From assembly GCA_963662265.2 (NCBI GenBank), contig CAXXHA010000010.1, positions 96,001-160,000 on the forward strand: a stretch of DNA of 64,000 bases, written 5' to 3'. A program made the translations under genes and the position numbers. Positions within the stretch are counted from its first letter, which is position 1; each line of letters starts with the position of its first letter. This DNA comes from Spirochaetia bacterium. GTDB lineage: Bacteria > Spirochaetota > Spirochaetia > CADAEX01. The notes below the pieces were generated by a model. That model saw only the letters and a list, made by a program, of their open reading frames with translations, made no database searches and was not told where the DNA came from. Below, in pieces: positions 3,497-17,094 of the stretch.

Positions 3497-4378
3497 TTAA
3501 AAATCCCCCAGATAAGTATTCAGGATAAGAGCAACCTTGCCTTTGCTGATCTTTATTCCCTGGGATTTCAGTTCTGTATAAATTTCAGCATAAGTATATG
3601 ATGGATTTGTTTTCTTTATAGAAAGAACCTTGTCTATTGTCTCCTGCGCTACCGGTTTCTTTGACCCGTAAATACCCTTCCTGACTGCTGCAATAAACGC
3701 AAATTTCAGTTTGTCGTAATCCTCCATAAGATTTTCATGCTGCTCCATCAGGTTTTTATGTGATTCGGAAAGAGACTCAAGATCTTTCTGGAGTTTATCA
3801 ATACTGCTGTCCCTGCTGGAATTTTCAATATCAATCTTTCCCAGCTGGTTTACTATATATTCAGGGTTATGTGAGACAATATACTTAACAGGATCATCAT
3901 AGGCAGCCTTCATCTTTCCGAAAAGATCTTCAGGGCTGAAATACTCTCCCCGTATCCTTACAAAAAAACGGTCTTTAAGCATTCTGAAATCATACATTGT
4001 AAATGTTCTGTGGATAAAAGAAAGCCCTGCCGGAAGATAAGGCGCGTAATCTGTTTCATCAATAATAAATTTCTCAGGAACAAGAACAGCTTCAAAACCT
4101 GTTTCGTTAAAAATAATGGAAGCATGTTTAACTTCCAGCCCTTCTATGAGTGAAAGTTCATTATAAAAACGGGCTATCACTGTTTTCTCATTCCTGCCCG
4201 GTTCTGATGCGCTTTTAAGGACAGCATTATCCATTCCCGGAATAATAATCCTGTAAAGCCCTAGTTCATCCTCGCTGATAAATTCAAATTCAATATCACC
4301 TTCTGTTATTTCCTGAGCAGGTATAAAAGCTGCGGAAAATAAAGTAAATACTATCAGTAATATTGTTATTCTTTTCAT
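3497..4378 (-). CDS. Exported hypothetical protein with coiled coil and C-terminal HTH-like segment
   Basis: Signal peptide MKRITILLIVFTLFSAAFIPA; heptad stretch near aa 190-225; third gene of the cyclase operon; RBS GGAG. Confidence 0.75.
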   Translation of the reverse strand: MKRITILLIVFTLFSAAFIPAQEITEGDIEFEFISEDELGLYRIIIPGMDNAVLKSASEPGRNEKTVIARFYNELSLIEGLEVKHASIIFNETGFEAVLVPEKFIIDETDYAPYLPAGLSFIHRTFTMYDFRMLKDRFFVRIRGEYFSPEDLFGKMKAAYDDPVKYIVSHNPEYIVNQLGKIDIENSSRDSSIDKLQKDLESLSESHKNLMEQHENLMEDYDKLKFAFIAAVRKGIYGSKKPVAQETIDKVLSIKKTNPSYTYAEIYTELKSQGIKISKGKVALILNTYLGDF

Positions 4379-4422: not shown

Positions 4423-5847
4423 CTATTCTGCCTGAACCAGAATTCTGTCAAACGGTTTTAATTCTTTACCCGACACATCAGTTCCGGGCTCACCGCCGTT
4501 GAAATGCAGAAGTCTTGCCAATATGACATTTTCTTCCCTGTAGAATTCTATTTCACCTACAAGCTCACTGTCTGTCCGGAATACATATCCCCTGTCGCCT
4601 TCATTTACTTCAAGGACCCGGTTCATATAAACAGATATCCGGTCATTGTTTTCAACAAACAGGATATAGCCGCTTACACCTGTTTCGCTGATATAGTAAT
4701 CAAATGCTGATGAAAATGATGATATAAACTCATTCCTGAGCTTCAGCGATTCAGCACTTCTTTTCCATCCTTTTTCATAGCTGTTGATTATACTGCTGCC
4801 TCTCTCATAAAGCCGGTCAAGAGCTTCAGGTACTGAATTTTCATACTCAACCCTTTTCAGCCTTTCTATGATAATTTCAATATCTGAAGCATCATTCCTC
4901 ACCCCGTTTATTTCATCAGCTGACAGTATTTTATTTTTATCAAGGATAAGAACATTCGCATCATCTGCCAGTTCAGGGAAGACAGCTTCTCTCCTGTCAG
5001 AAAGAATGGAATTATATTCCTCTTCAAAAACAGGGTTGTATTTCTGATACATCTCATCCAGCTCGTTCTTGTGGCGGTTTTTAAGAACAGATACAAGCCG
5101 CCTGTTATCTCTTTTCAATGTTGAGATTTCCCTGTCATACCGGCTTTCCATATCATCCATCCGGGTCTCGTACATGTTTACAGTATTTTCCATTTCAAGT
5201 TCAGCTTTTTTCTGCTGATTGTTGAGAAGTTCCTCCTGTTTTCTGGCCTGTTCAAGAACTGTGGCATCATAGGAGGCTATTGCCTTTTCAATTTCACTTA
5301 TTTCCTTTTCCTTCTCTTCAATCTTTTTGCTGTATTCCTTATCAAATGAAGCAACAGTCCGCGATTCCCGCCGCCTTAAAACAGCAAGCTCTTTGTTTTT
5401 TTCCTCATCACTCTTATTGCTTTCCCGCACAATCAAAGAATCTCTTTCCCTCTGGCTTTTTGCTTCTGAAACTGAAGCGCTGTATTCTTCCTTTAAAGCC
5501 TTCAGCTCGTTACGCGCTCTTTCCAGCTTCTGTTCATAGTTTTTTGCTACATCAAGAATATCCTTGAGGTTAACATCTTCAAAATCCTTTATTTCAATAG
5601 GAACAATTCTTCCTGATGCCTGAATATACCTGGTTACAGCATAGGCTGTACCGACAAATACAATTAAAAAAACGAGTATTGTAATTATTACAAGGTAGTT
5701 CCTGTTTTTTTTGGTGGCAGCAAACTCTTTCTCAAGGTCATAAAGGTCTTTGCTCCCTATTTCCAGGTTTTTCCAATCAAGAAATGTTTTTCTGCTCTGA
5801 CTTACTATATCTTTTACTTTTCTGTCATTGTCCATATTCCATTCCAT
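4423..5847 (-). CDS. Single-pass membrane protein with long coiled coil and C-terminal beta domain (start may be 5835)
   Basis: One TM helix (YLVIITILVFLIVFVGTAYAV), about 200 aa of E/K/R-rich heptads; overlaps the 3' end of the cyclase gene. Confidence 0.8.
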   Translation of the reverse strand: MEWNMDNDRKVKDIVSQSRKTFLDWKNLEIGSKDLYDLEKEFAATKKNRNYLVIITILVFLIVFVGTAYAVTRYIQASGRIVPIEIKDFEDVNLKDILDVAKNYEQKLERARNELKALKEEYSASVSEAKSQRERDSLIVRESNKSDEEKNKELAVLRRRESRTVASFDKEYSKKIEEKEKEISEIEKAIASYDATVLEQARKQEELLNNQQKKAELEMENTVNMYETRMDDMESRYDREISTLKRDNRRLVSVLKNRHKNELDEMYQKYNPVFEEEYNSILSDRREAVFPELADDANVLILDKNKILSADEINGVRNDASDIEIIIERLKRVEYENSVPEALDRLYERGSSIINSYEKGWKRSAESLKLRNEFISSFSSAFDYYISETGVSGYILFVENNDRISVYMNRVLEVNEGDRGYVFRTDSELVGEIEFYREENVILARLLHFNGGEPGTDVSGKELKPFDRILVQAE

Positions 5848-7514
5848 CCTTCCGGCGGAGTCCTGCCGGAAATTCTTTCTATGAATACGTCAGCGGCAGG
5901 AAGACGTGAAATTGAAAAATTCTTTTCCGCGCTTCTCCAGTCACCTCTATAATATTCTTTAAGTGCTGTGTTGTATGTTTTAAGTTTCGCTTCAAGTTCA
6001 TCATCAAGTGTATCCACCTGAACAGGCCAGAATATTTTCTTGCCTGTGTTTTTCCCTTTTACCTTAACTATATCGAGTTCCTGAAAATAGTAGTCTTCAG
6101 TATACTCCGAAGCATCATCCCTGATATATTCCGAACATATTACAGGGACCTTATATATCCTGGTAAGTCCTTCCAGACGGGAAGCAGAGTTTACATTATC
6201 TCCGATAACTGTGTTTGTCATACGCTCATTGGAGCCGATATTTCCGTAGAAAACCTCTCCTCCGTCAATCCCGACTCCGACTTCAATGAGAACTGCCTTG
6301 TATACAATTTCCTCAGCCCTGGTAAGAGCGCCTCTTCTCCTTACAATCTCTTCCCTTTTTTCAATCATCTTTTTCCTGAGATCCGCAGCTACTTCCTGGA
6401 TCCTGTATGATGACTGTAGAGCTTCAACCGACTTGTTTTCCGCAAGATCGTCAAATGTTCCGAAGATTGCAAGAAGAGCATCCCCGATAATTGATCCTAC
6501 AATACCCTCTTTCCTGTGGACTTCTTTTATTGCATTCTGATAATGCATATTAATGAGATTGATAATATCTGTCCCAAGAACTTCTGTCATATTTGTAAAC
6601 TGCTTGATATCGGAAAAAATAATTGTCAGTTCCTTGGAAGAACCTTCAAGACGGATTTGTTTTTCCCGGTATGCCTTTTTAACAACATCAGCAGTTACAA
6701 ATTTCCTGAATATTGTCATAAGGTTATCTATATTGCTGGAAAGTGAATTAAATGACATTCCCAGCAGGGTAATATCATCATTGGGAGCATCGCCAAGATC
6801 AACAAGGCCGAATTTCTGCTCTTCCCTCATCTTCATTATCTGGTCAGTCATGCGCGGGACAAACCTCAGGATATGGCTGACAAGATAGATTCCCAGGGCG
6901 CTGCATATTATTGTAATGAAAATAATTATTATTGATATCCTGATAAAGACAACCCTGGTCTGGTGGTAGAATTCATTAACTTCTTCAGCCCTTACAAGAT
7001 AAGCATCCCACTTCCGGTTGTATTTTGTGACTCCGAAAAATTCACTGCTGCCTATCATGAAGTTAAGAGAATCTTCCTCTTTATTTTCTTTTTTCAGCTG
7101 ACTGATTTTCGCATCCAGACCGGCAAGATCTTTTTTTACCGGGGCTTTACCGGGTGATTTACTGAAAAGGATTTCCCCGTTCTGTGAAAGGCCAAGAAAG
7201 ACAGATCTCTCACCTTTCAGCTCCTTGAGAGCCCTTTCCCCGATATACCCCAGAGCTTCTTCTCTGTTCTGATTATAGGTGAAAATTTCATACTGGTTAT
7301 TGCAGAAAGTATGAAGATCTTTGAGGTCCCGGACCAGAAGCTGATTCATAAGCTTTATCTGGACACCGCGGTTGAGAACGAGATTGATATAATTTGTAGT
7401 AAAATTTGAAAGCAGAAGCAATATTATGAACAATCCGGTAATTTTGATAGTTATCGGGACTACTCGTGTCCCCCTGATGCTGTAACCGATCAGGCGTTTT
7501 AGTTTATTACCCAT
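5814..7514 (-). CDS. Membrane-bound class III nucleotidyl cyclase (2 TM, periplasmic loop, HAMP-like, cyclase, TPR-like tail)
   Basis: IFSDIKQFT, IGDALLAIFG, VGIDGGEVFYGNIGS, TVIGDNVNSASRLEG, VKVKGK. Confidence 0.93.
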   Translation of the reverse strand: MGNKLKRLIGYSIRGTRVVPITIKITGLFIILLLLSNFTTNYINLVLNRGVQIKLMNQLLVRDLKDLHTFCNNQYEIFTYNQNREEALGYIGERALKELKGERSVFLGLSQNGEILFSKSPGKAPVKKDLAGLDAKISQLKKENKEEDSLNFMIGSSEFFGVTKYNRKWDAYLVRAEEVNEFYHQTRVVFIRISIIIIFITIICSALGIYLVSHILRFVPRMTDQIMKMREEQKFGLVDLGDAPNDDITLLGMSFNSLSSNIDNLMTIFRKFVTADVVKKAYREKQIRLEGSSKELTIIFSDIKQFTNMTEVLGTDIINLINMHYQNAIKEVHRKEGIVGSIIGDALLAIFGTFDDLAENKSVEALQSSYRIQEVAADLRKKMIEKREEIVRRRGALTRAEEIVYKAVLIEVGVGIDGGEVFYGNIGSNERMTNTVIGDNVNSASRLEGLTRIYKVPVICSEYIRDDASEYTEDYYFQELDIVKVKGKNTGKKIFWPVQVDTLDDELEAKLKTYNTALKEYYRGDWRSAEKNFSISRLPAADVFIERISGRTPPEGWNGIWTMTEK

Positions 7515-7845
7515 TATATTATCCGATTACAACCATTTTATGGTACTTCTGCTGTAAAAGCAATTAAATAAATTCTGCAGCAATTACTCAAAATATAACC
7601 AGACATGGTTTCAGCCTTATAAACGGCATATGCCTCTTTATCTATAGCATATAAGGAAATATTTCCGGCTCAAACAGAAAAAATCTGCGGATTCTGCTTA
7701 TTCATCACCGATACAATTAAAAACATAAAAACAATAACCTGATGTTATCAAACCTTTGACAGCTGTTGTATAAATCCTCTTTTTTTGGTTATATAGCTGT
7801 GAAAGCAGTGACTGTTTTTTTATTTTATTTTACTGGAGAAATACT

Positions 7846-8451
7846 ATGTATGTCGTATGTCTTGATCTTGAAGGGGTTCTGGTCCCTGAAATCTGGATCA
7901 ATGTTGCCCTGAAAACAGGAATTGAAGAACTCAAACTTACTACAAGAGATATTTCAGACTATGATGTTCTTATGAAGAAAAGAATCGGTATTCTTGATGA
8001 GCACAACCTGAAACTCAAAGATATCCAGGATGTAATTACTACAATGGATCCTCTTGTGGGAGCATTTGATTTTATTGAAAAACTCAGGGAAAACACACAG
8101 GTTGTAATACTTTCAGATACATTCCGACAGTTTGCAAAACCTCTCATGAAAAAGCTTGCATGGCCGACTCTTTTCTGCAACGATCTTATTGTCAACAGCG
8201 ATGATCAGATTACCGGTTACAAACTCAGGCAGAAAGACGGTAAAAAGTTTGCTGTACAGGGATTTCATTCAATGGGCCTCAAGGTCGCGGCATCAGGAGA
8301 TTCCTATAACGATCTTTCAATGATAAAAGAAGCTGACGGGGGAGTTCTGTTCTGCCCGCCTGAACAGATTGTTCTTGATAATCCGAATCTGCCTGTTGCT
8401 CATAATTATGAAGAGCTCTTCAGACATATATCCAATATAATTGCTGAATAG
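7846..8451 (+). CDS. thrH: Phosphoserine phosphatase/homoserine phosphotransferase (HAD)
   Basis: CLDLEGVLVPEIW, TTRD, LSDTF, PTLFCN, SGDSYND signature of ThrH. Confidence 0.95.
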   Translation: MYVVCLDLEGVLVPEIWINVALKTGIEELKLTTRDISDYDVLMKKRIGILDEHNLKLKDIQDVITTMDPLVGAFDFIEKLRENTQVVILSDTFRQFAKPLMKKLAWPTLFCNDLIVNSDDQITGYKLRQKDGKKFAVQGFHSMGLKVAASGDSYNDLSMIKEADGGVLFCPPEQIVLDNPNLPVAHNYEELFRHISNIIAE

Positions 8452-8484
8452 CCTTTAAAAACAGAGTAATTCAGTCAATTCAGG

Positions 8485-8527
8485 CCCGGCCGCTTCTGAG
8501 GGGAACCCTTAAAAACGGCCGGGTTTT
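8485..8527 (+). terminator. Terminator between convergent thrH and histidine kinase genes
   Basis: CCCGGCCG...CGGCCGGG stem followed by TTTT. Confidence 0.7.
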
Positions 8528-8529
8528 AT

Positions 8530-10971
8530 TTAGTCCTGTTTTTTCAGAAAATCAAGCAGAATATTAAATTCTGACTCAACTACCGGGATAAGGCTTCCTG
8601 ATTCTTCTTTGTTTTTTTCTTTTGCACTTTTTTCAAGCAAGGCTGCTGCATCTCCAAGACGTTCCATAGAAAGGTTGAGCCCGCCCCCCTTGATGGAATG
8701 GGCTTCCCTGGTAAGATCCTCATATTTTTCCGATTCGAGAAGCTCCTTCATTATTGCAAGCTGCCCGGTTACCCTGTCCCTGAATTCTGCAAGAACCTCA
8801 TCAAGGACCTCTTTTTCTCCCATGAAAGTTTCAAGCGCTGCATTGTAATCAAAGACAACCCTGCCTGTGTCAGCGGCAATCTCATCAGTTTCCTCAGAAA
8901 TACCAAGATCAGATATTTTCGGATCATCAACTATAATCTCATCAAGCTCTTCAGAATCATCTGCAATTTCAAGTTCTTCGAGCTCTGCAACTTCTTCATC
9001 TCTGAGAAGCCACTTGTTTATTACAGGGAAGAGATCTCCCTTCTTAAACGGCTTGGTCAGGAAATCATCCATCCCGGCATCTATACACTTGTTTTTTTCA
9101 CCGGCAACAGCATTGGCTGTCACCGCAATTACAGGAGTCTTCACCCCTTTTTCCCTGATTTTCTCAGTTGCCTGAAAACCGTTCATCACAGGCATCTGTA
9201 TATCCATGAATATCAGGTCAAAATCATCTGAATCAACAGCATCGGAGGCTTCCTTCCCGTTGTTGGCAACTACAACATCGATATTCAGGTTATTGAGAAT
9301 CGTCTTGAAAAGCTTCTGATTGACATAATAATCTTCCGCCAGGAGAACTTTTTTCCTGTTTGAAGCAAGGAGTTCACTTATAATTTTCTGTTCAGCCTCG
9401 GTATCATCACTCTGGGGAGTATCAAGATCAACCACAATGTCGAGTGCCTTGAAAATAGCCTTGTAAAGCTCCCACTTTTTAACCGGCTTGTTAAGATACT
9501 CATTGAACCAGTTCAGAAGCTTCATTTTAGCCTCATCGCCGCTCTTTCCCACAGGAGTCATCAGTATTTTATTAATATCACTGAAATTTTCATCAGCATT
9601 AAGCTCTCCTGCAAGCTGCCATCCGTCCATTCCAGGCATTTTTTTGTCAATTATTATAAGGTCAATTTTTTCATAGGTTTTATTCTCTTTCATTTTAAGA
9701 AAATCAAGAGCTGCCCGGCCTGAGACTGCTTCATATACTGTCGCACCAAGTTCCTCAACATATTTCCTTATCTGCTTCCTGCTCCTTGTATTGTCATCAA
9801 CAATAAGAACTTCAAAATTATCAGGGAGCTTGTCAGGGGGAAAATACTTCTTAGTAGTACTCTCAACCTCTTTTACCGGAAAGGCAAACCAGAAAACAGA
9901 ACCCTTACCCTCAATACTGTCTACACCTATCTTACCTTTGAAGAGGTGGACAAGATTCTTGCATATTGAAAGCCCGAGGCCTGTTCCTCCGTATTTCCTG
10001 GTTACAGATGAATCAACCTGGGAGAAAGACCTGAAAAGCTTGTCCTTCCTGTCTTCAGGTATACCTATTCCTGTATCACGAATGGAAAACTGCAGAACAG
10101 CACGGCCTGATACCCTTTTTGCAACAGAGCAGCTTATAGCGATTTCCCCTTTTGAAGTAAATTTAATCGCATTGTTAAGGAGATTTATTATTATCTGCCT
10201 CAGCCTTACAGGGTCTCCTGTTACTATTTCAGGGACATCAGGTGCAATGGATAATATAACTTCAAGATCCTTTTTATGGGCTTCCATAGATATCAGTGAT
10301 ACTGCCGCTTCAAGAGTTTCATAAAGATCAAATGCAATTTTTTCAACAACAAGCTTGCCTGCTTCAATCTTTGAAAAATCGAGAATATCATTTATCAGAT
10401 TAAGAAGCACCTCGGCTGAAAAGAAAATCTGCTGACCGTATTCCTCCTGCTCGACATCAAGAGCTGTCTCGAGGAGAAGTTCTGTCATACCCATGATTGT
10501 ATGGAGCGGAGTCCTTATCTCATGGCTCATGTTTGCAAGAAATTCAGATTTTGTTTTTGTAGCCTGTTCTGCAAGCTGTTTTGCCGCTTCAAGCTTGCCG
10601 TGGTCCTCTTTCAGTTCAGTAATATCTTCGAAATAAGCTATGAAAAGCTTTTTCCCTTCATATTCAGAACCTGATGAGAGCCTTATCTTGACCCATTTTT
10701 CAACAGGTCCGGAAGAACTGTACAGATATTCGAATTTGCTCTTAAACAGAGAATCATTTTTTACTTTTTCGAATTCAGCAGAAAAGGCCTGGTAAAATTC
10801 CTTCTGAAAACATCCGGATACAGAAGAACCTGAAAGATCCTCTGTATCACAGAAAATATAATTAAGCAGAGATTTATTATGGACAATAATTTTCTCTTCT
10901 TCATCAAAAATAATAATTCCGTAGCTGGAATTTAGAAAAAAATCAAAAAGACTTTTATCAAGCGCTTTCAT
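8530..10971 (-). CDS. Cytoplasmic hybrid histidine kinase (PAS-HisKA-HATPase-REC-REC-Hpt)
   Basis: FLANMSHEIRTP, NLLNNAIKFT, DTGIGI, GGTGLGL, two REC domains (IIDKKMP, FMDIQMP), Hpt AHSIKG; no TM segment. Confidence 0.95.
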   Translation of the reverse strand: MKALDKSLFDFFLNSSYGIIIFDEEEKIIVHNKSLLNYIFCDTEDLSGSSVSGCFQKEFYQAFSAEFEKVKNDSLFKSKFEYLYSSSGPVEKWVKIRLSSGSEYEGKKLFIAYFEDITELKEDHGKLEAAKQLAEQATKTKSEFLANMSHEIRTPLHTIMGMTELLLETALDVEQEEYGQQIFFSAEVLLNLINDILDFSKIEAGKLVVEKIAFDLYETLEAAVSLISMEAHKKDLEVILSIAPDVPEIVTGDPVRLRQIIINLLNNAIKFTSKGEIAISCSVAKRVSGRAVLQFSIRDTGIGIPEDRKDKLFRSFSQVDSSVTRKYGGTGLGLSICKNLVHLFKGKIGVDSIEGKGSVFWFAFPVKEVESTTKKYFPPDKLPDNFEVLIVDDNTRSRKQIRKYVEELGATVYEAVSGRAALDFLKMKENKTYEKIDLIIIDKKMPGMDGWQLAGELNADENFSDINKILMTPVGKSGDEAKMKLLNWFNEYLNKPVKKWELYKAIFKALDIVVDLDTPQSDDTEAEQKIISELLASNRKKVLLAEDYYVNQKLFKTILNNLNIDVVVANNGKEASDAVDSDDFDLIFMDIQMPVMNGFQATEKIREKGVKTPVIAVTANAVAGEKNKCIDAGMDDFLTKPFKKGDLFPVINKWLLRDEEVAELEELEIADDSEELDEIIVDDPKISDLGISEETDEIAADTGRVVFDYNAALETFMGEKEVLDEVLAEFRDRVTGQLAIMKELLESEKYEDLTREAHSIKGGGLNLSMERLGDAAALLEKSAKEKNKEESGSLIPVVESEFNILLDFLKKQD

Positions 10972-10991
10972 CTAACCTGCCTTAATAATGA

Positions 10992-12239
10992 TTAAATACC
11001 AAGACTCAGTACTTCTGCTGTTTTTCTCTGGATTGCATCCGGTTTAAGAGGTTTTATCATATAGCTTTTTACACCCAGGTTTACAGCTTTGAGAACTGTC
11101 TCCTTTCTTGAAAGTGCGGACAGAACAATTACAGGATTTACTATATTATTTTCCCTCAGATAATTAAGCACAGTAAAACCATCCATTTCCGGCATCATAA
11201 GATCGAGAAATACAAGGTCATATTTATTGTCAGCAACTGTATCGACAAATTCTTTCCCGTTTTCAAAAAGAGATATATCCCATTTCAGGTTCCTGAAAAC
11301 TGTCTTGACCAGCTGCCTGATAACAAGGTCATCATCAACAATTGCAATACGGATATCATCTCCGAATGTCTCAAGCTCCATGAAAGTTTTTTCATTGTCA
11401 AACCGCATCTGAAAATTATCGCTGTCTGCACTGCCATGTTCATTGGCAAGAAGTGCTTCACCGACAATCTTGTCCTGCGCAAAACTGTCCCCCTTGATTC
11501 CTATCAGATCATCAAGCGCCTGGCTCAGATTTGCAGTCAGCCCGATTTTCCTGAATTCGGGAGTTGACTTTACATATTCCTTTACAACATCAGAATTTGT
11601 AAGGATCCTGATATGCTCCGGTTTATCTCGGCTTTTTTCCAGTATTGTATCAAGCAGTGCCCTGAGCTTGTAAATCTGCTTGTCATCAATATCAAGACCG
11701 CTCATCATCAGAAGGAATTTGGGAACTGCAGCCTGATAAAGCTTGATAAGCTCATCAATTTTATATCTCAGGAGTTCGATCTTTTCTGTATTAAGCCCTT
11801 TTGCAACTTCAAGAAACAGTATTTCATCATTGTAATGGGCCTCGATTATACATGGTGTGTCATCAACTTCTATTGTTACACCTGTCACTTCTGTTATCCC
11901 CTTGAAAAGTAGATCCATCTTCACAGGCTTGGGAAATATTTTTTTCACACCGAATTTTGCGAATTCAGCAATTTTTCTCTTATCTATTTTATTAGATATA
12001 AGGATAACATCTGTATCTTTGGTATTTGGATTTGAATGCTTCTCTGTGAGTATCTCCTGGCAGCTCTTTCTTGAAAGCAGGTGGTCCATGATTATAAGGT
12101 CAGGAAGAACTTTCCTGAGCTTGAGAGACCCGTCAAGACCGTTAACCCCATATTCGACTTCAAAATTATGTTCAGTAAATTTTTTCCCGAGATACTCCCT
12201 GAACATCTCGGATTCATCAATTATCAGTACTTTTTTCAA
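10992..12239 (-). CDS. Response regulator with two REC domains flanking a STAS-like domain; no DNA-binding output
   Basis: Probable TTG start at 12239 after GGAGG; REC1 LIIDES/IMDHLL/KP; REC2 IVDDD/FLDLMMP/KP. Confidence 0.88.
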   Translation of the reverse strand: MKKVLIIDESEMFREYLGKKFTEHNFEVEYGVNGLDGSLKLRKVLPDLIIMDHLLSRKSCQEILTEKHSNPNTKDTDVILISNKIDKRKIAEFAKFGVKKIFPKPVKMDLLFKGITEVTGVTIEVDDTPCIIEAHYNDEILFLEVAKGLNTEKIELLRYKIDELIKLYQAAVPKFLLMMSGLDIDDKQIYKLRALLDTILEKSRDKPEHIRILTNSDVVKEYVKSTPEFRKIGLTANLSQALDDLIGIKGDSFAQDKIVGEALLANEHGSADSDNFQMRFDNEKTFMELETFGDDIRIAIVDDDLVIRQLVKTVFRNLKWDISLFENGKEFVDTVADNKYDLVFLDLMMPEMDGFTVLNYLRENNIVNPVIVLSALSRKETVLKAVNLGVKSYMIKPLKPDAIQRKTAEVLSLGI

Positions 12240-14379
12240 CTTTTTCCTCCGTCTCAATTTTAAATATGTCTGAAAGGACCTCCCTCGTAACTGCATAAAG
12301 AGGAGGAATTCCCTCTGAAAGCTCCATTTTCATAGACAGCTGATTTCCTTCCGCGGCAGGAAGATCAGACACATAATAATAAAAATTCATAGGTATCTTA
12401 TCAGGAATCAGACCATACTGCCGGGCTTCGACAATCTGGCGCAGATAAAAAACACCTTCCATCTCAAGACCAATGCTTCCCCACATATGCCTGTAAAATG
12501 AAAGCATCATCCTGTTCTGAAACAATGTCCCTGCAACTGTCAGCATGGGCCCCTTATATATTTTACGGCCGGGCAGTCTTTTTTGTAAATCATTTATTCT
12601 GTCAATCGCCCTGTTTTCCACCGGGAGGAATAAATCTTCAGACTGCTCCACAAACGCTGTGGGAAGAAGAATATCCCCCCTGCTTCCTACAAGGGAACCG
12701 GTTTTTCCCAGAATATTTATACTGCCGATATTTTTTCCGAAAAGGAGAAGCAGGTTCCGCATTATCTCCCCGGCCTGCTCGCCGAATGCATAGTCAATAT
12801 TAAGAATAATTGATTCTGAATCTGATGGGATCTGCCCCACTCCCGGATCAATTTTCTTGTCCTTGAGCTTTTTAAGGCTGAAAAGCTGAACCTTGATGCC
12901 TGTGGAGGCTGTCCTGTCCAGAGTAACTATCCCTTCAGGAAAATTTACTTTTGATTTTTTCTTGATATTTTTTTCAGGACTTCGTTCGCCTTTCCTGTCT
13001 GTATTATCATACTCATCTCCCACCTGCTCCGGCTGGTTCTCTTCTTCATCTTCCGGTTCATAATCCTTGAGAAGAGCATAAAGGGTATCAAACCTGTTGT
13101 CCCATTCCTCATTAAGCGCTGGATGCCCCGACTCTCTTCCCCATTCAATTATTGTATCAATGCTTTCAGAGAGATCAGGATTCAGGCAGTTAAGCACAGA
13201 ATGTGTATTGCTGCTGATAATATGGATCTTTATATTTTCCGGAAGTTCGGTGGGATTGAACCCTGTCAGTTTTCTTGCAGCATCACCGATCTGGGAAAGC
13301 CACATTTCAGAACGCCTGGTATTATAGAGATCCACCTGTTTTTTAATTATCAGGCTGAATATTCCGCTGTGTGTCAGGACTTTGAAAACCTGTTCCAGTG
13401 TATCGTCCGGCCATATTATTTTAAGCCCCTCAACTTCATCATTATTAAAGGGAAGATAATTATAAAGCTTTTTCTCCTCTTTAGGCGATTTATTATCTGA
13501 GTTGAGATACTTCTTAAGCATGAGTATAAGCTTGTAGTCAGACAGCCTTCTTCTGATCTTTTCCGATTCAACAGTAAAGACACATAGACAGGTTATAAGG
13601 TCGAGAATATCTGATATACCGGGCCTGTAAAGCATCATTGTCTGGCCGGGAAGCATTTTCCATCCCCGCCTTCTCCGTGCCTGGGCAGGAACAGGGCTGA
13701 AAAGCTTCCATGGTTCGGAATAGTGCTCGTAAAGCTCATCTATGAGAATATATATGAAGTTTTCCGTTACATTGCAGGGAAGCCGTTTTACAGCATAGTC
13801 AAGGGCCTGAAAATCAATTACTTCAGTATCAAGCACTTTTGAATGAAGAGCAGGCTCCATTGCCTTGTAAAAAGGGATCAGGTCCTGAATTTCAATATGC
13901 TCTCTTGTAAGCCCCTGCACAACTTCAGCCTTGAACCTGTCAAAAGCTGCAAAAATCCCCTGCTTGTCTCTCAGGATGTTGCTCATTGTTTTTGAGAACT
14001 GCTTTGATGTGTGAAGAAGGTTTCTGAATTTCTTTCCCGACAGGCTGTAGCACTTTATGTCTGAAAGAGCCCTGACTGTCGAGAGACGCTTCTGATTGAA
14101 AATAGCAGACCGTTCACCGAAATAGTGCCCCCCTGTTATTACATTAATCCTGTTTTCTGTACCATCCTCTTTCTCATCTACAGTTTCGACAACACCTCTG
14201 CTGAGAATATAGACAACATCATCAGAATCCCCTTTCCGGTAAATTATATCGCCTTTGTGATATTTATTTTCCTTCAGTTCTGATACCAGTCTGTCTTTTT
14301 CCCTTGCAGAAAGAAACCTGAAAGGCATTATCCTGTCAAGGAGATTAAACAATATGGTTCTGTCTTCAATTTTATTCAA
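12217..14379 (-). CDS. Cyclic-nucleotide-binding domain fused to a DUF6909-like / AMP nucleosidase-PNP-fold domain
   Basis: N-term GDIIYRKGD...YILSRG...YFGERSAI...RLSTVRA (cNMP cassette); C-term IISSNTHSVLN, GKTGSL..GDILLP, GPMLTV, GLEMEG, YVSDLP. Confidence 0.8.
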   Translation of the reverse strand: MNKIEDRTILFNLLDRIMPFRFLSAREKDRLVSELKENKYHKGDIIYRKGDSDDVVYILSRGVVETVDEKEDGTENRINVITGGHYFGERSAIFNQKRLSTVRALSDIKCYSLSGKKFRNLLHTSKQFSKTMSNILRDKQGIFAAFDRFKAEVVQGLTREHIEIQDLIPFYKAMEPALHSKVLDTEVIDFQALDYAVKRLPCNVTENFIYILIDELYEHYSEPWKLFSPVPAQARRRRGWKMLPGQTMMLYRPGISDILDLITCLCVFTVESEKIRRRLSDYKLILMLKKYLNSDNKSPKEEKKLYNYLPFNNDEVEGLKIIWPDDTLEQVFKVLTHSGIFSLIIKKQVDLYNTRRSEMWLSQIGDAARKLTGFNPTELPENIKIHIISSNTHSVLNCLNPDLSESIDTIIEWGRESGHPALNEEWDNRFDTLYALLKDYEPEDEEENQPEQVGDEYDNTDRKGERSPEKNIKKKSKVNFPEGIVTLDRTASTGIKVQLFSLKKLKDKKIDPGVGQIPSDSESIILNIDYAFGEQAGEIMRNLLLLFGKNIGSINILGKTGSLVGSRGDILLPTAFVEQSEDLFLPVENRAIDRINDLQKRLPGRKIYKGPMLTVAGTLFQNRMMLSFYRHMWGSIGLEMEGVFYLRQIVEARQYGLIPDKIPMNFYYYVSDLPAAEGNQLSMKMELSEGIPPLYAVTREVLSDIFKIETEEKVEKSTDN

Positions 14380-14468
14380 TTCTGTTTTTCCTGGTTTTAA
14401 TTATACTACAGAAATATAATATCCTGTAATCAGGCAGAGACTGAAAAACAGCCTCTGCATTTTTTTAT

Positions 14469-14957
14469 CTAGAATTTATAGCTGAATTTTCTCAAGAGAG
14501 ATTTTCTGTCTTCCTTGTCCTTGTCAGTTTCAATACCTTTTGGAGAAAATCCGTCTATAACACCTGCAACGCCTCTTCCCTGCTCCGATTCAGCAATAAT
14601 TGCCTGAAGAGGATTGGCTGTTGCGGCAAATATTCCCACTATTTCCTGGCAGTTCTGAATCTGCGTCAGAACATTTATTGGAAATGCATTTCTAATATAC
14701 AGAATAAATGTATGGCCGGCAGCAACTTTTTCCGCATTGCCGGCAGCTGCCTTGACAAGCTCATCAGAATTCCCCTCAGTTCTTATCAGGCAGGGACCTG
14801 ATGCTTCACAGAAAGCAAGTCCGAATTCAATTCCCGGAACTGAACCGATAAGAATTTCAGAGACATCTTCGACTGTCTTGATAAAATGAGACTGTCCGAA
14901 TATAACATTACAGTTTTCCGGAATATCAATCTGTACTGTACTTAATTTTAAATCCAT
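14469..14957 (-). CDS. Adenosine-specific kinase family protein (DUF355, PAE2307-like)
   Basis: [51 protein letters not shown] motifs. Confidence 0.9.
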
Positions 14958-15325
14958 AAATTATTCTCCGTTTTTTTTACTATACTCCCCTTATACAACG
15001 GGGTAAATGTTTTTTTTCGCATCTCCGCATGTCGTGTTTTATATGCAGGGTAAAAAGCTGCTGCTGCACCGGAATTAACCGGAACCAGCTTCTGAAGCAA
15101 AGACTGGATATTCCTGTCCTCTTGTTTTCAGGAATACTGATCCTTCAGAGAACACGGTATACTCTGAGGAGCTGCTCTTTAATCAACAATCCCTTTGTCA
15201 CCGGTTCCGGCGGGTACTGTTTTTTTGCAGGCAGCGGGGGATCAGACCCGGCCTGCGAATAAAAGCTCTCTAATCTGAATAATTCCGCCATATCGAGGCT
15301 GCAAATCAGCCGAACAGGGTAATGC

Positions 15326-15377
15326 AAAAAAACTCCCCGGATATAGCTGTCAGGCCTTGCATCAGGGGAGTTTTTTT
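15326..15377. terminator. Bidirectional terminator downstream of pheT
   Basis: A7-CTCCCC...GGGGAG-T7 inverted repeat. Confidence 0.8.
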
Positions 15378-15405
15378 ACTGATATTATTACTGCATGTAA
15401 ACTGT

Positions 15406-17094
15406 TTACATAATCAGGTCAAGATTAACTTCTGATGCAGTACATGGAACACCAATACCCCAGTTTTCAAGCACTGCAGGATGAACCTCGCCCATAATAC
15501 CTACAACTTTGCCGTCTGACACTATGTTTGCACATCTTCCCGGTATAAACCTGGGGTCTTCAGCCTCTTCCAGCTTGTAATCTTTGGAAAGATAGAAAAA
15601 GAGAGCTGAAACCTGTGAACTTACACTGTTGAAGTTGGCACTTCTGTCGGCAGAGAGAAATCCGAGTGAGTTTATTGTACTCACACCGTAGTTTTCCTCA
15701 TCGTTGATAAGAGCAATCTTTCCGGTTTCAAAAATATTGTGAGGATACACAGCATTACCGGAAACAGACTCGGAATTGAGAAGGCACGGTATTACAGAAG
15801 GTCTCACATATTCAAAATTCTCACTCATCGGGTTTGAAATCTGAACAGTATCCTTCCCTTCAATATTCATCTTTGCAATATAGTCCTTACCTGATCCGAG
15901 GTAGTTGTAGACCATTTCCTGGAATCCCAGGCCAACAAGAATATTCTTTACTTCCCTTGCAAAAAGAGATTCAGGAGTAAGAGCACCCTTTGTAAAATCG
16001 TCAGGCATTATCTGGTTGAAGTTAGCCATACCCTTGCCGATCATGATGTCTTCAATAATATCCACAGGGTGGAGAAAGTCGTTTCTGTATTCTGCAGGGT
16101 AGAGCTTAAGAATATCTCCCTTTACTTCTATCTTGCATCCCAGCTTTTCACCGAGATCAGCTGCCTGCCGGGGAGTGAAATTCTCACCGAGGAGCTTGTT
16201 GACATATGCTATTTCAACTTCAACCGGCTCCTGGAAATAGAAAGGTACAGTTACCTCTTTTCCGAGAGGAGTGTCATAGGGATAGACTGTTTTTACAGGG
16301 AGTATTTCATATCCTGCATCTGCAAGGTCGCATGCAACAATTGATGCTGCAAGCACGAGAGAATACTGCTCTGTTCCTGTCATCTCAATGAAAAGCTCTT
16401 TATCTCCGACTTCTACAGCTCCGAGATCGTTGCTGTTGATAATTGGAGGAAAGCTTAATGTGGCACCTTCTGATCCTGTTATATGGGGATATTTTTCAAA
16501 ACCTTCAACAATATGTCCATATTCCTGCCCCTTTGGATGATCTTTAAGAATTTCCTTCAATGACATTTCCCTGTCAAATGTAAGGGGAACAAATTTAGTC
16601 GCATCAGGATCAGCTGCATTGTATTTTACAGGGTATGAGAAGAGGTCACTTCTATAGACACCCATTGCAATTGCTTTTCTCTTCTGGCCGAAGTTCCAGC
16701 AGAGCTTCTCCTGTGTCTGTATAATATCCTTGAGTGAGGAATCATCAATCCCTTTCCCCCGGATCGCAAACGCGGCAATATAGGGTCTTATGTTTTCAAG
16801 ACCGGGATCAACTTCAATTGTTCTGCCGCCGCAGTCTTTCACATCACCTTCTTTTGAGAAGAAAGGATATTCAGGTCTCATCCCCCCGAGGTAAACTCTG
16901 AGCTGACGTCCGAGTCCTGCTGTAGACCAGAGGTCAGGCCTGTTTGTATCGTTAAGCTCGATTTTAAGGATATCATCATCCTTTCCATCAAGCTCTGCTT
17001 TTGCAGATGAAAGTAGTGTTATGAAGTCATCACCTTCCACCTTTTTTCCCATATATCTGTAAAGAGTATCTTCATATACTTCAATTTTAGGCAT
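15406..17094 (-). CDS. pheT: Phenylalanine-tRNA ligase beta subunit, archaeal/eukaryotic type (short)
   Basis: 562 aa; NRPDLWS, B3/B4 IRPYIAA/QEKL/FPPIINS, B5 YRNDFLHPVDIIEDI; lacks bacterial B2 and B8 domains. Confidence 0.95.
   Translation of the reverse strand: MPKIEVYEDTLYRYMGKKVEGDDFITLLSSAKAELDGKDDDILKIELNDTNRPDLWSTAGLGRQLRVYLGGMRPEYPFFSKEGDVKDCGGRTIEVDPGLENIRPYIAAFAIRGKGIDDSSLKDIIQTQEKLCWNFGQKRKAIAMGVYRSDLFSYPVKYNAADPDATKFVPLTFDREMSLKEILKDHPKGQEYGHIVEGFEKYPHITGSEGATLSFPPIINSNDLGAVEVGDKELFIEMTGTEQYSLVLAASIVACDLADAGYEILPVKTVYPYDTPLGKEVTVPFYFQEPVEVEIAYVNKLLGENFTPRQAADLGEKLGCKIEVKGDILKLYPAEYRNDFLHPVDIIEDIMIGKGMANFNQIMPDDFTKGALTPESLFAREVKNILVGLGFQEMVYNYLGSGKDYIAKMNIEGKDTVQISNPMSENFEYVRPSVIPCLLNSESVSGNAVYPHNIFETGKIALINDEENYGVSTINSLGFLSADRSANFNSVSSQVSALFFYLSKDYKLEEAEDPRFIPGRCANIVSDGKVVGIMGEVHPAVLENWGIGVPCTASEVNLDLIM

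Follow-up and report, generated by a model that had tools for sequence, protein, structure and literature searches.

A DUF6909 protein of a Spirochaetia bacterium combines a cyclic nucleotide-binding domain with a nucleosidase fold and is probably a new kind of cyclic nucleotide-controlled enzyme

Four co-oriented genes of a Spirochaetia bacterium raise the question of whether a cyclic nucleotide signal, a phosphorelay and purine metabolism are joined there in one module, or whether one of the genes acts on its own. The locus lies within a 64,000-nucleotide stretch (the window) of contig CAXXHA010000010.1 (GenBank assembly GCA_963662265.2, positions 96,001 to 160,000), and its central gene encodes a 720-amino-acid (aa) protein in which a cyclic nucleoside monophosphate (cNMP)-binding domain precedes a DUF6909 region. 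An initial annotation of the window had read the genes as a single signaling module. We favor, with a probability of roughly 0.58, a different reading: the 720-aa protein is a self-contained, one-component signaling enzyme that performs cNMP-regulated purine N-ribosyl cleavage and has no role in defense, and the phosphorelay pair next to it is independent. The protein, cNMP-DUF6909, is probably a new kind of enzyme controlled by cyclic AMP (cAMP) or cyclic GMP (cGMP).

The case starts from what is directly observed, namely the domains, fold, conservation and synteny pattern of the protein. At the N-terminus, cNMP_binding (PF00027) matches aa 39-124 above its cut-off (E 7.8e-19), and the Gly-Glu and Arg of the phosphate-binding cassette (G88, E89 and R98) are invariant among 42 homologs. 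With Glu89 and Arg98 intact the domain looks ligand-competent, in keeping with the sensor role that the initial annotation gave it. DUF6909 (PF21850) matches aa 164-707 (380.3 bits, cut-off 27, E 1.6e-113) and is covered from position 1 to position 535 of its 535, which makes the protein a clear member of this family. A sequence search of the PDB with the full protein and with its C-terminal 241 aa returned only cNMP-domain matches or nothing.

The nature of the C-terminal half emerged from structure prediction. An AlphaFold2 model built from the 42 homologs (predicted local distance difference test [pLDDT] 86.7, predicted template modeling score 0.85) was compared with the PDB using Foldseek, which returned cNMP domains and AMP nucleosidases, among them Amn (2guw_B, E 8.4e-9). 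As modeled, the C-terminal domain has the alpha/beta fold of the NP-I / PNP_UDP_1 superfamily, to which purine nucleoside phosphorylase (PNP), MTAN and UP belong. The model, the Foldseek run and the conservation of the EME and SD motifs thus bear out the PNP/AMP-nucleosidase fold that had been proposed from motifs, and the motifs then listed all occur in the translation in the claimed order: GKTGSLVGSRGDILLP (558-573), GPMLT (610-614), EME (639-641) and VSDLP (670-674). The domain is split by a charged, low-complexity insert predicted to be disordered (aa 444-477, window 12952-13050, pLDDT <50), which is mostly gapped across homolog alignments.

The residues expected of an active site are the ones that vary least. 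E639, M640, E641, G642, S671, D672 and P674 are invariant among the 42 homologs and in 45 catalytic domains drawn from Spirochaetes and Bacteroidota; in a set of 76 sequences that spans the cNMP-fused and the stand-alone forms of DUF6909, their conservation is 95% or higher. The latter threshold is also reached in the catalytic domain by H386, S389, N391, H393, S394, a DYAFG-Q-A block, G558-K559-x-G561, G568-D569, G617-T618-x-x-Q621-N622, EMEG and YY-SD-P. LEMEG aligns locally onto VEME of E. coli DeoD and Mtn, VSDLP aligns onto VSDKP (D428) of E. coli Amn, and one profile comparison registers NIDYAFGEQA, LGKAGAL, GDIL, LEMEG and VSDLP with their Amn counterparts; among the strands and helices predicted by the model, the EME and SD positions fall where they are expected. 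By this motif-level alignment, the protein has the Met-Glu that binds ribose (EME) and the Asp that protonates the base (SD) in NP-I enzymes. A paper on K. pneumoniae Amn names M404, E405 and D428 as active-site residues conserved across such homologs (PMC9584410); the corresponding residues of DUF6909, M640, E641 and D672, do not vary. In PNP, MTAN and Amn, it is the SD-motif Asp that protonates purine N7 (PMC9584410). PF01048 matches 13/42 homologs at E ≤0.01 (best 1.9e-7), and a distant member of the family (P0496) reaches 26.1 bits against its cut-off of 25.1.

Between sensor and catalytic domain lies a 215-aa middle domain in which R199, R235, R237, D260, E271 and K274 are at least 95% conserved in the 76 sequences. 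Foldseek and VIA wide found no relatives of this domain and the ESM Atlas gave no usable match; we regard it as a candidate new fold. We infer catalysis, its purine specificity, gating by a cNMP and the direction of regulation, and the scheme would run as follows. Binding of cAMP or cGMP at the N-terminal domain would allosterically change the activity of the catalytic domain, which would break the N-ribosidic linkage in a purine nucleoside or nucleotide. The ribose hydroxyls would be held by Glu641 (EME) and the purine would receive its proton from Asp672 (SD), while the invariant Arg/Lys residues of the middle domain, along with Lys559, are candidate binders of phosphate, whether of the substrate or as nucleophile. 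Such an enzyme would link the purine or adenylate pool to cNMP signaling. The more specific proposal that AMP or ATP is the substrate is not supported.

Comparison with known enzymes sets this architecture apart. Like Amn of E. coli, Salmonella and Klebsiella (PDB 1t8s, 2guw and 7uwq), the protein has an accessory domain N-terminal to the catalytic domain, and the motif strings of the two correspond (NIGVG/NIDYA, GHCGGL/GKAGAL, GDYV/GDIL, IDMES/LEMEG and VSDKP/VSDLP, Amn first), but sequence similarity is not significant (E 0.35-0.54). Amn is itself allosterically regulated; there the regulation comes from MgATP and phosphate, whereas here it would come from the fused cNMP domain. The Amn regulatory domain AMNp_N (PF10423) is absent. 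Unlike in DeoD and MtnN, the canonical phosphate-binding arginines are not conserved in the DUF6909 catalytic domain, and by motif alignment Lys559 takes the place of Ser90 of PNP and Ser76 of MTAN. DUF6909 further differs from these enzymes in its additional 215-aa domain and its cNMP sensor, and the genome has a separate canonical Mtn, apparently fused to LuxS. Parallels in layout are the cAMP-sensing EAL phosphodiesterase Bd1971 and the mycobacterial acetyltransferase Pat, both matched in sequence by the cNMP part, which likewise place an enzymatic output behind an N-terminal cyclic nucleotide-binding domain; their outputs differ from the PNP-superfamily domain found here. We describe cNMP-DUF6909 as a putative sensor-gated PNP-superfamily member with a novel accessory domain. 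Searches of open-access papers and bioRxiv turned up no mention of DUF6909 and no description of a cNMP domain combined with a nucleosidase or PNP; both domains are named, separately, in PMC7159879.

The wider family shows DUF6909 behind more than one sensor. A profile search run exhaustively over 1.84 billion representatives recovered 825 proteins at E ≤0.001 (251 at E ≤1e-30), so that DUF6909 comprises at least 825 representative clusters, with members in Spirochaetota, Bacteroidota and certain protists. Cultured relatives that carry a homolog include Spirochaeta africana, S. cellobiosiphila and Salinispira pacifica. When one genome per species was scanned by pattern, at least 580 DUF6909 loci were found, of which 80 were kept, and locus counts below refer to these 80. 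The cNMP-fused form occurs at Spirochaete loci and a few others; the Bacteroidota form stands alone, is about 563 aa long and begins at the equivalent of residue 140-170. Among 39 long forms scanned, 18 carry cNMP_binding, one a GAF domain and one a REC domain plus cNMP (P0393), and two have a C-terminal DFP domain, one of them preceded by NADAR as well (NADAR-DUF6909-DFP). Because it is paired with cNMP, GAF or REC plus cNMP, or stands alone, DUF6909 appears to be an output domain behind interchangeable sensors. A DUF6909-DFP fusion is present in the ciliate Blepharisma stoltei (P0471, P0453 and P0451 are the eukaryote-derived and NADAR-fusion records), and a 1703-aa EukProt protein also carries DUF6909. 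The DFP and NADAR fusions hint at chemistry related to ADP-ribose or cofactors in some branches.

In distant lineages the neighbors of cNMP-DUF6909 are heterogeneous and unrelated, which speaks for the autonomy of the protein. In Bacteroidota (loci L026-L080), DUF6909 belongs to a co-oriented, conserved, envelope-related cluster, in which 31 loci have an M23 peptidase, 35 a GH3/OlsH-like adenylating enzyme and 34 an unannotated product of about 331 aa; rmlB/rmlA/rmlC are also part of it. Unannotated neighbors of about 320 aa accompany DUF6909 in both Spirochaetes and Bacteroidota, and were rejected as homologs of each other (E 68); a copy of the Spirochaete protein lies on a different contig of the window genome. 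In a Gemmatimonadota metagenome-assembled genome, a gene for a cNMP-gated ion channel (L013:8518-9867(-)) is divergent from cNMP-DUF6909 (L013:10001-11959(+)), so that two cNMP effectors adjoin.

Table 1. Coordinates of the locus and of the domains of the 720-aa protein, in positions of the window
Feature	Position	Strand	Description
cNMP-DUF6909 gene	12217-14379	(-)	720 aa, TTG start
cNMP-binding domain	13960..14379	(-)	aa 1-140
Middle domain, N-terminal half of DUF6909	13315..13959	(-)	aa 141-355; without known fold match
PNP/MTAN/Amn-fold catalytic domain, C-terminal half of DUF6909	12220..13314	(-)	aa 356-720
Spacer DUF355 / cNMP-DUF6909	14380..14468	(-)	two stable RNA hairpins
DUF355 / PF04008 protein	14469..14957	(-)	162 aa; adenine-nucleotide-binding family; lineage-specific upstream neighbor
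REC-x-REC response regulator	10992..12239 (longest open reading frame 10992-12296)	(-)	415 aa from TTG at 12239
Cytoplasmic hybrid histidine kinase	8530..10971	(-)	813 aa; PAS-HisKA-HATPase-REC-REC-Hpt
thrH (phosphoserine phosphatase/homoserine phosphotransferase)	7846..8451	(+)	NCBIfam NF010109, 300 bits vs cut-off 133; syntenic housekeeping neighbor
Class III nucleotidyl cyclase	5814..7514	(-)	566 aa; PF00211, E 4.2e-16; possible, non-obligate cNMP source

One alternative is an integrated module, in which DUF355, cNMP-DUF6909, REC-x-REC and the histidine kinase cooperate and a cNMP-activated AMP/ATP nucleosidase is either coupled to a phosphorelay and an adenosine-binding kinase or controlled by them. 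The four genes and their stated domains are indeed all present, as open reading frames (ORFs) with Pfam matches on the minus strand: the DUF355 ORF matches PF04008 (Adenosine_kin/DUF355, E 2.5e-72), the REC-x-REC ORF has two Response_reg stretches, and the kinase ORF has HisKA, HATPase_c, Response_reg (two stretches) and Hpt, with PAS_4 below threshold (E 7e-4). Since REC-x-REC homologs are 415-420 aa long and begin with MKKVLIIDES, the true start is the TTG at 12239, which has GGAGGA ahead of it. Translation from this codon gives a 23-nt overlap with the end of the DUF6909 gene and, with the 20-nt gap between REC-x-REC and the kinase gene, agrees with the junctions described earlier. DUF355 and the cNMP gene are 89 nt apart. 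Here the sequence 14380-14475 folds into two hairpins (-25.8 kcal/mol, z -3.94, with none of 200 shuffles equally stable), a structure that counts against reading the genes as one unit; no U-tract follows the first stem. An Rfam scan of 7400-15600 gave no credible match, and scans for promoters (19 promoter-like sites vs 15.8 expected) and terminators (9 terminator-like sites vs 6.4 expected) remained at background.

Co-orientation, overlap and short gap all suit the integrated module, and its proposed gene order was examined by synteny. In a class sample of 151 genomes, DUF6909 is present in 23, always as a single copy and consistently within families (6/6 in family f10). Eight of these 23 genomes (G000 and G120 of family f1; G009, G045, G071, G095, G117 and G136 of f10), from two families and four genera, have REC-x-REC directly downstream in the same orientation and at a short distance; another 14 have it elsewhere, and in one it was not found. 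DUF355 occurs in 7/23, in f1 and f10 only: six of the eight linked genomes have it 0.1-6 kb upstream in the same orientation, one genome has it on a separate contig, and in the other 16 it was not found. DUF355 together with full-length REC-x-REC and kinase orthologs stands beside DUF6909 at just two of the 80 loci (L001 and L002, 62-64% identical). A conserved four-gene order in relatives was thus not recovered. The kinase ortholog, on the other hand, adjoins the REC-x-REC ortholog in 20/22 genomes irrespective of where DUF6909 is, and REC-x-REC is present as a single copy in 83/151 genomes, 61 of which have no DUF6909. For these reasons, REC-x-REC and the histidine kinase are an independent, widely conserved phosphorelay pair, and the four genes are a lineage-specific juxtaposition, with tight DUF6909 linkage in only two Spirochaete families. 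The ESM Atlas places REC-x-REC in a Spirochaete response-regulator family, to which REC-STAS clusters are distant look-alikes. Found in many Spirochaete families, the REC-x-REC protein, whose middle domain is uncharacterized, and its kinase look like a core phosphorelay.

A complex prediction for DUF6909 (aa 141-720) with REC-x-REC (aa 20-434) scored 0.00 against a mark of 0.32, a result that speaks neither for nor against binding. The single REC-cNMP-DUF6909 fusion cluster (P0393) is in favor of cooperation, although REC domains are promiscuous and one fusion is therefore weak evidence; the unrelated neighbors at distant cNMP-DUF6909 loci point the other way. According to one report, a DUF355 homolog of T. 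thermophilus cleaves ADP to AMP, which would suit an adenylate module, and PAE2307 binds adenosine and AMP and bears a phospho-histidine, but the T. maritima homolog had neither kinase nor phosphatase activity (PMC10248530). The adenosine-specific kinase activity assumed by the initial annotation was thus not reproduced for the T. maritima homolog, and the family name is an unreliable functional clue; PDB relatives of the DUF355 protein are all deposited as hypothetical proteins. We judge the integrated module to be unlikely. It could hold in a weaker form restricted to the two linked families, where local functional recruitment is a thin possibility to which the tight linkage and the one fusion point.

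Several results weigh against the reading of cNMP-DUF6909 as a cNMP-regulated nucleosidase itself. In the sensor, the cassette Arg is not followed by the Ser/Thr/Ala that cAMP or cGMP binders typically have there. The 720-aa protein (P0002) has no PF01048 match at E ≤0.1. When two profiles of the family (A1 and A3) were aligned by hhalign to the individual Amn, Mtn and DeoD sequences of E. coli, no comparison was significant (E 0.03-0.54), and the catalytic-domain profile likewise matched none of four reference proteins significantly in a local hmmsearch. An Amn homolog search gave close relatives (at least 81% identical among the 120 matches listed), too uniform for a diverse Amn profile. Since these profile comparisons are not significant, the residue equivalences are motif-level, consisting of short local matches and secondary-structure register. 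Finally, the 45 catalytic domains share not one invariant Arg, so the phosphate or nucleophile site would be unlike that of canonical PNPs.

This last feature, with Lys559 at the position of the PNP and MTAN Ser, also suits another explanation, namely that the PNP-like domain is a non-catalytic sensor of purines or nucleosides, or acts on an N-ribosyl substrate that is not a purine or nucleotide, such as an NAD- or ADP-ribose-related compound or a cofactor intermediate. The NADAR-DUF6909-DFP and DUF6909-DFP fusions, one of them in a ciliate, point toward ADP-ribose or cofactor chemistry, and the envelope-related cluster of the Bacteroidota form could be read in the same way. About 30 positions of the catalytic domain, including EME and SD, are nevertheless invariant across phyla, as is typical of an active enzyme, and the SD Asp corresponds to the residue that protonates purine N7 in PNP, MTAN and Amn (PMC9584410). 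We consider this explanation quite unlikely, and return to cNMP-regulated purine N-ribosyl cleavage as the preferred reading.

The remaining question is whether such an enzyme serves defense or housekeeping. The flanks of the locus contain pheST, thrH, EF-G and rRNA/tRNA-modification genes. Among the 80 loci, pheT is upstream of DUF6909 in 13 and thrH downstream in 13, and DUF6909 holds a conserved pheST...thrH position across families. GC content is uniform and like that of the flanks, and no defense or mobile genes flank cNMP-DUF6909. Given these flanks, the uniform GC content, the vertical single-copy distribution and a PNP part without a PADLOC match, the evidence favors a chromosomal gene that is inherited vertically and serves housekeeping or regulation, not a defense effector; the earlier preference for a housekeeping neighborhood is upheld, with no defense signature found.

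The cyclase gene was missing from the initial annotation. Its ortholog is found in 9/23 DUF6909-bearing genomes and at 3/80 loci, is never adjacent to or operonic with DUF6909, and lies on the DUF6909 contig, 4.7-43 kb away, in four genomes; it was not found in f10 or in G120. The window genome has seven cyclase domains and 18 cNMP domains, so the neighboring cyclase is one of several candidates for supplying the ligand. Like DUF355, this cyclase is a lineage-specific neighbor of cNMP-DUF6909. Downstream of the cyclase, ORFs 4423-5847(-), which overlaps it by 34 nt, and 3497-4378(-) have no Pfam, NCBIfam or PADLOC match. Cyclase and both ORFs recur in L002, and cyclase and the first ORF in L007; the three may form a conserved cyclase-associated cassette.

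Known defense systems resemble the locus in outline. Cap17 of CBASS and DtcC of Detocs are PNP-fold effectors behind signal-sensing domains, and a preprint describes PNP-domain ATP nucleosidases as defense effectors behind varied sensors and Detocs as joining such a nucleosidase to a two-component system that includes hybrid kinase and receiver proteins (bioRxiv 10.1101/2023.01.24.525353). No Cap17, DtcC or other PADLOC model matches the PNP part here at E ≤0.01, and sensing would be by a cNMP domain instead of a SAVED-type domain or REC, in a neighborhood of pheST, thrH and EF-G; with the Amn N-terminal domain also lacking, membership of the Amn or Cap17/DtcC branches is not supported. The three-gene Detocs operons encode a sensor kinase, a buffer receiver and a receiver-PNP fusion, whereas the PNP-fold protein here has no REC and the kinase/REC-x-REC pair is conserved independently of it. 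In Pycsar, a PycC cyclase is next to a cNMP effector whose toxic domain is TIR or transmembrane; here the effector domain is PNP-like, and the cyclase is 4.7 kb away with thrH, the kinase and REC-x-REC in between. An abortive-infection effector like those of Pycsar, CBASS (Cap17) or Detocs, in which cNMP made by a cyclase upon phage infection would cause the gated PNP domain to deplete ATP, is thus very improbable: the weak matches of the cNMP domain to Pycsar effector models (PycTIR-type, E ~1e-5 to 2e-6) and of the cyclase to PycC models (2.4e-13) concern generic cNMP and class III cyclase domains, and they stand against the conserved position, single copy, family-consistent presence and ordinary GC content and flanks of DUF6909.

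Two PNP_UDP_1 genes were seen elsewhere in the genome. The canonical one (G000:C39:59878-60558(-), L081) lies in a 410-aa open frame whose product combines an MtnN-type nucleosidase (MKVGIIVAMEEE...) with a LuxS-like C-terminal part bearing an HTIEH motif, and judged by its sequence is an apparent Mtn-LuxS fusion spanning both steps of the autoinducer-2/S-adenosylhomocysteine pathway. The other (G000:C14:80772-81451(+), L082-L084) is broken across three frames, with in-match stop codons, and is a pseudogene or an assembly error.

A bolder version of the preferred reading would make DUF6909 an unrecognized branch of N-glycosidases acting on nucleotides or nucleosides, composed of a PNP fold and a new-fold, Arg-rich phosphate-site domain. 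In free-living Spirochaetes it would be a direct, enzymatic cAMP/cGMP receptor, and so a new class of cNMP effector in bacteria, that destroys or reshapes the adenylate or purine pool; in two families it would share one transcription unit with the core REC-x-REC/hybrid-kinase phosphorelay, the two signals converging on purine-nucleotide levels. In its entirety we put this forward as a doubtful extension. The analysis also corrects two over-readings, in that the adjacent phosphorelay is an independent pair and the kinase name of DUF355 gives no reliable clue to function. Few bacterial enzymes are known that answer directly to cAMP or cGMP, most known receptors being transcription factors or channels. 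If the preferred reading is true, a cNMP-gated, purine N-ribosyl-cleaving enzyme would provide a metabolic output for cNMP signaling in organisms rich in cNMP domains, and a function would be assigned to a DUF family of at least 825 representative clusters.

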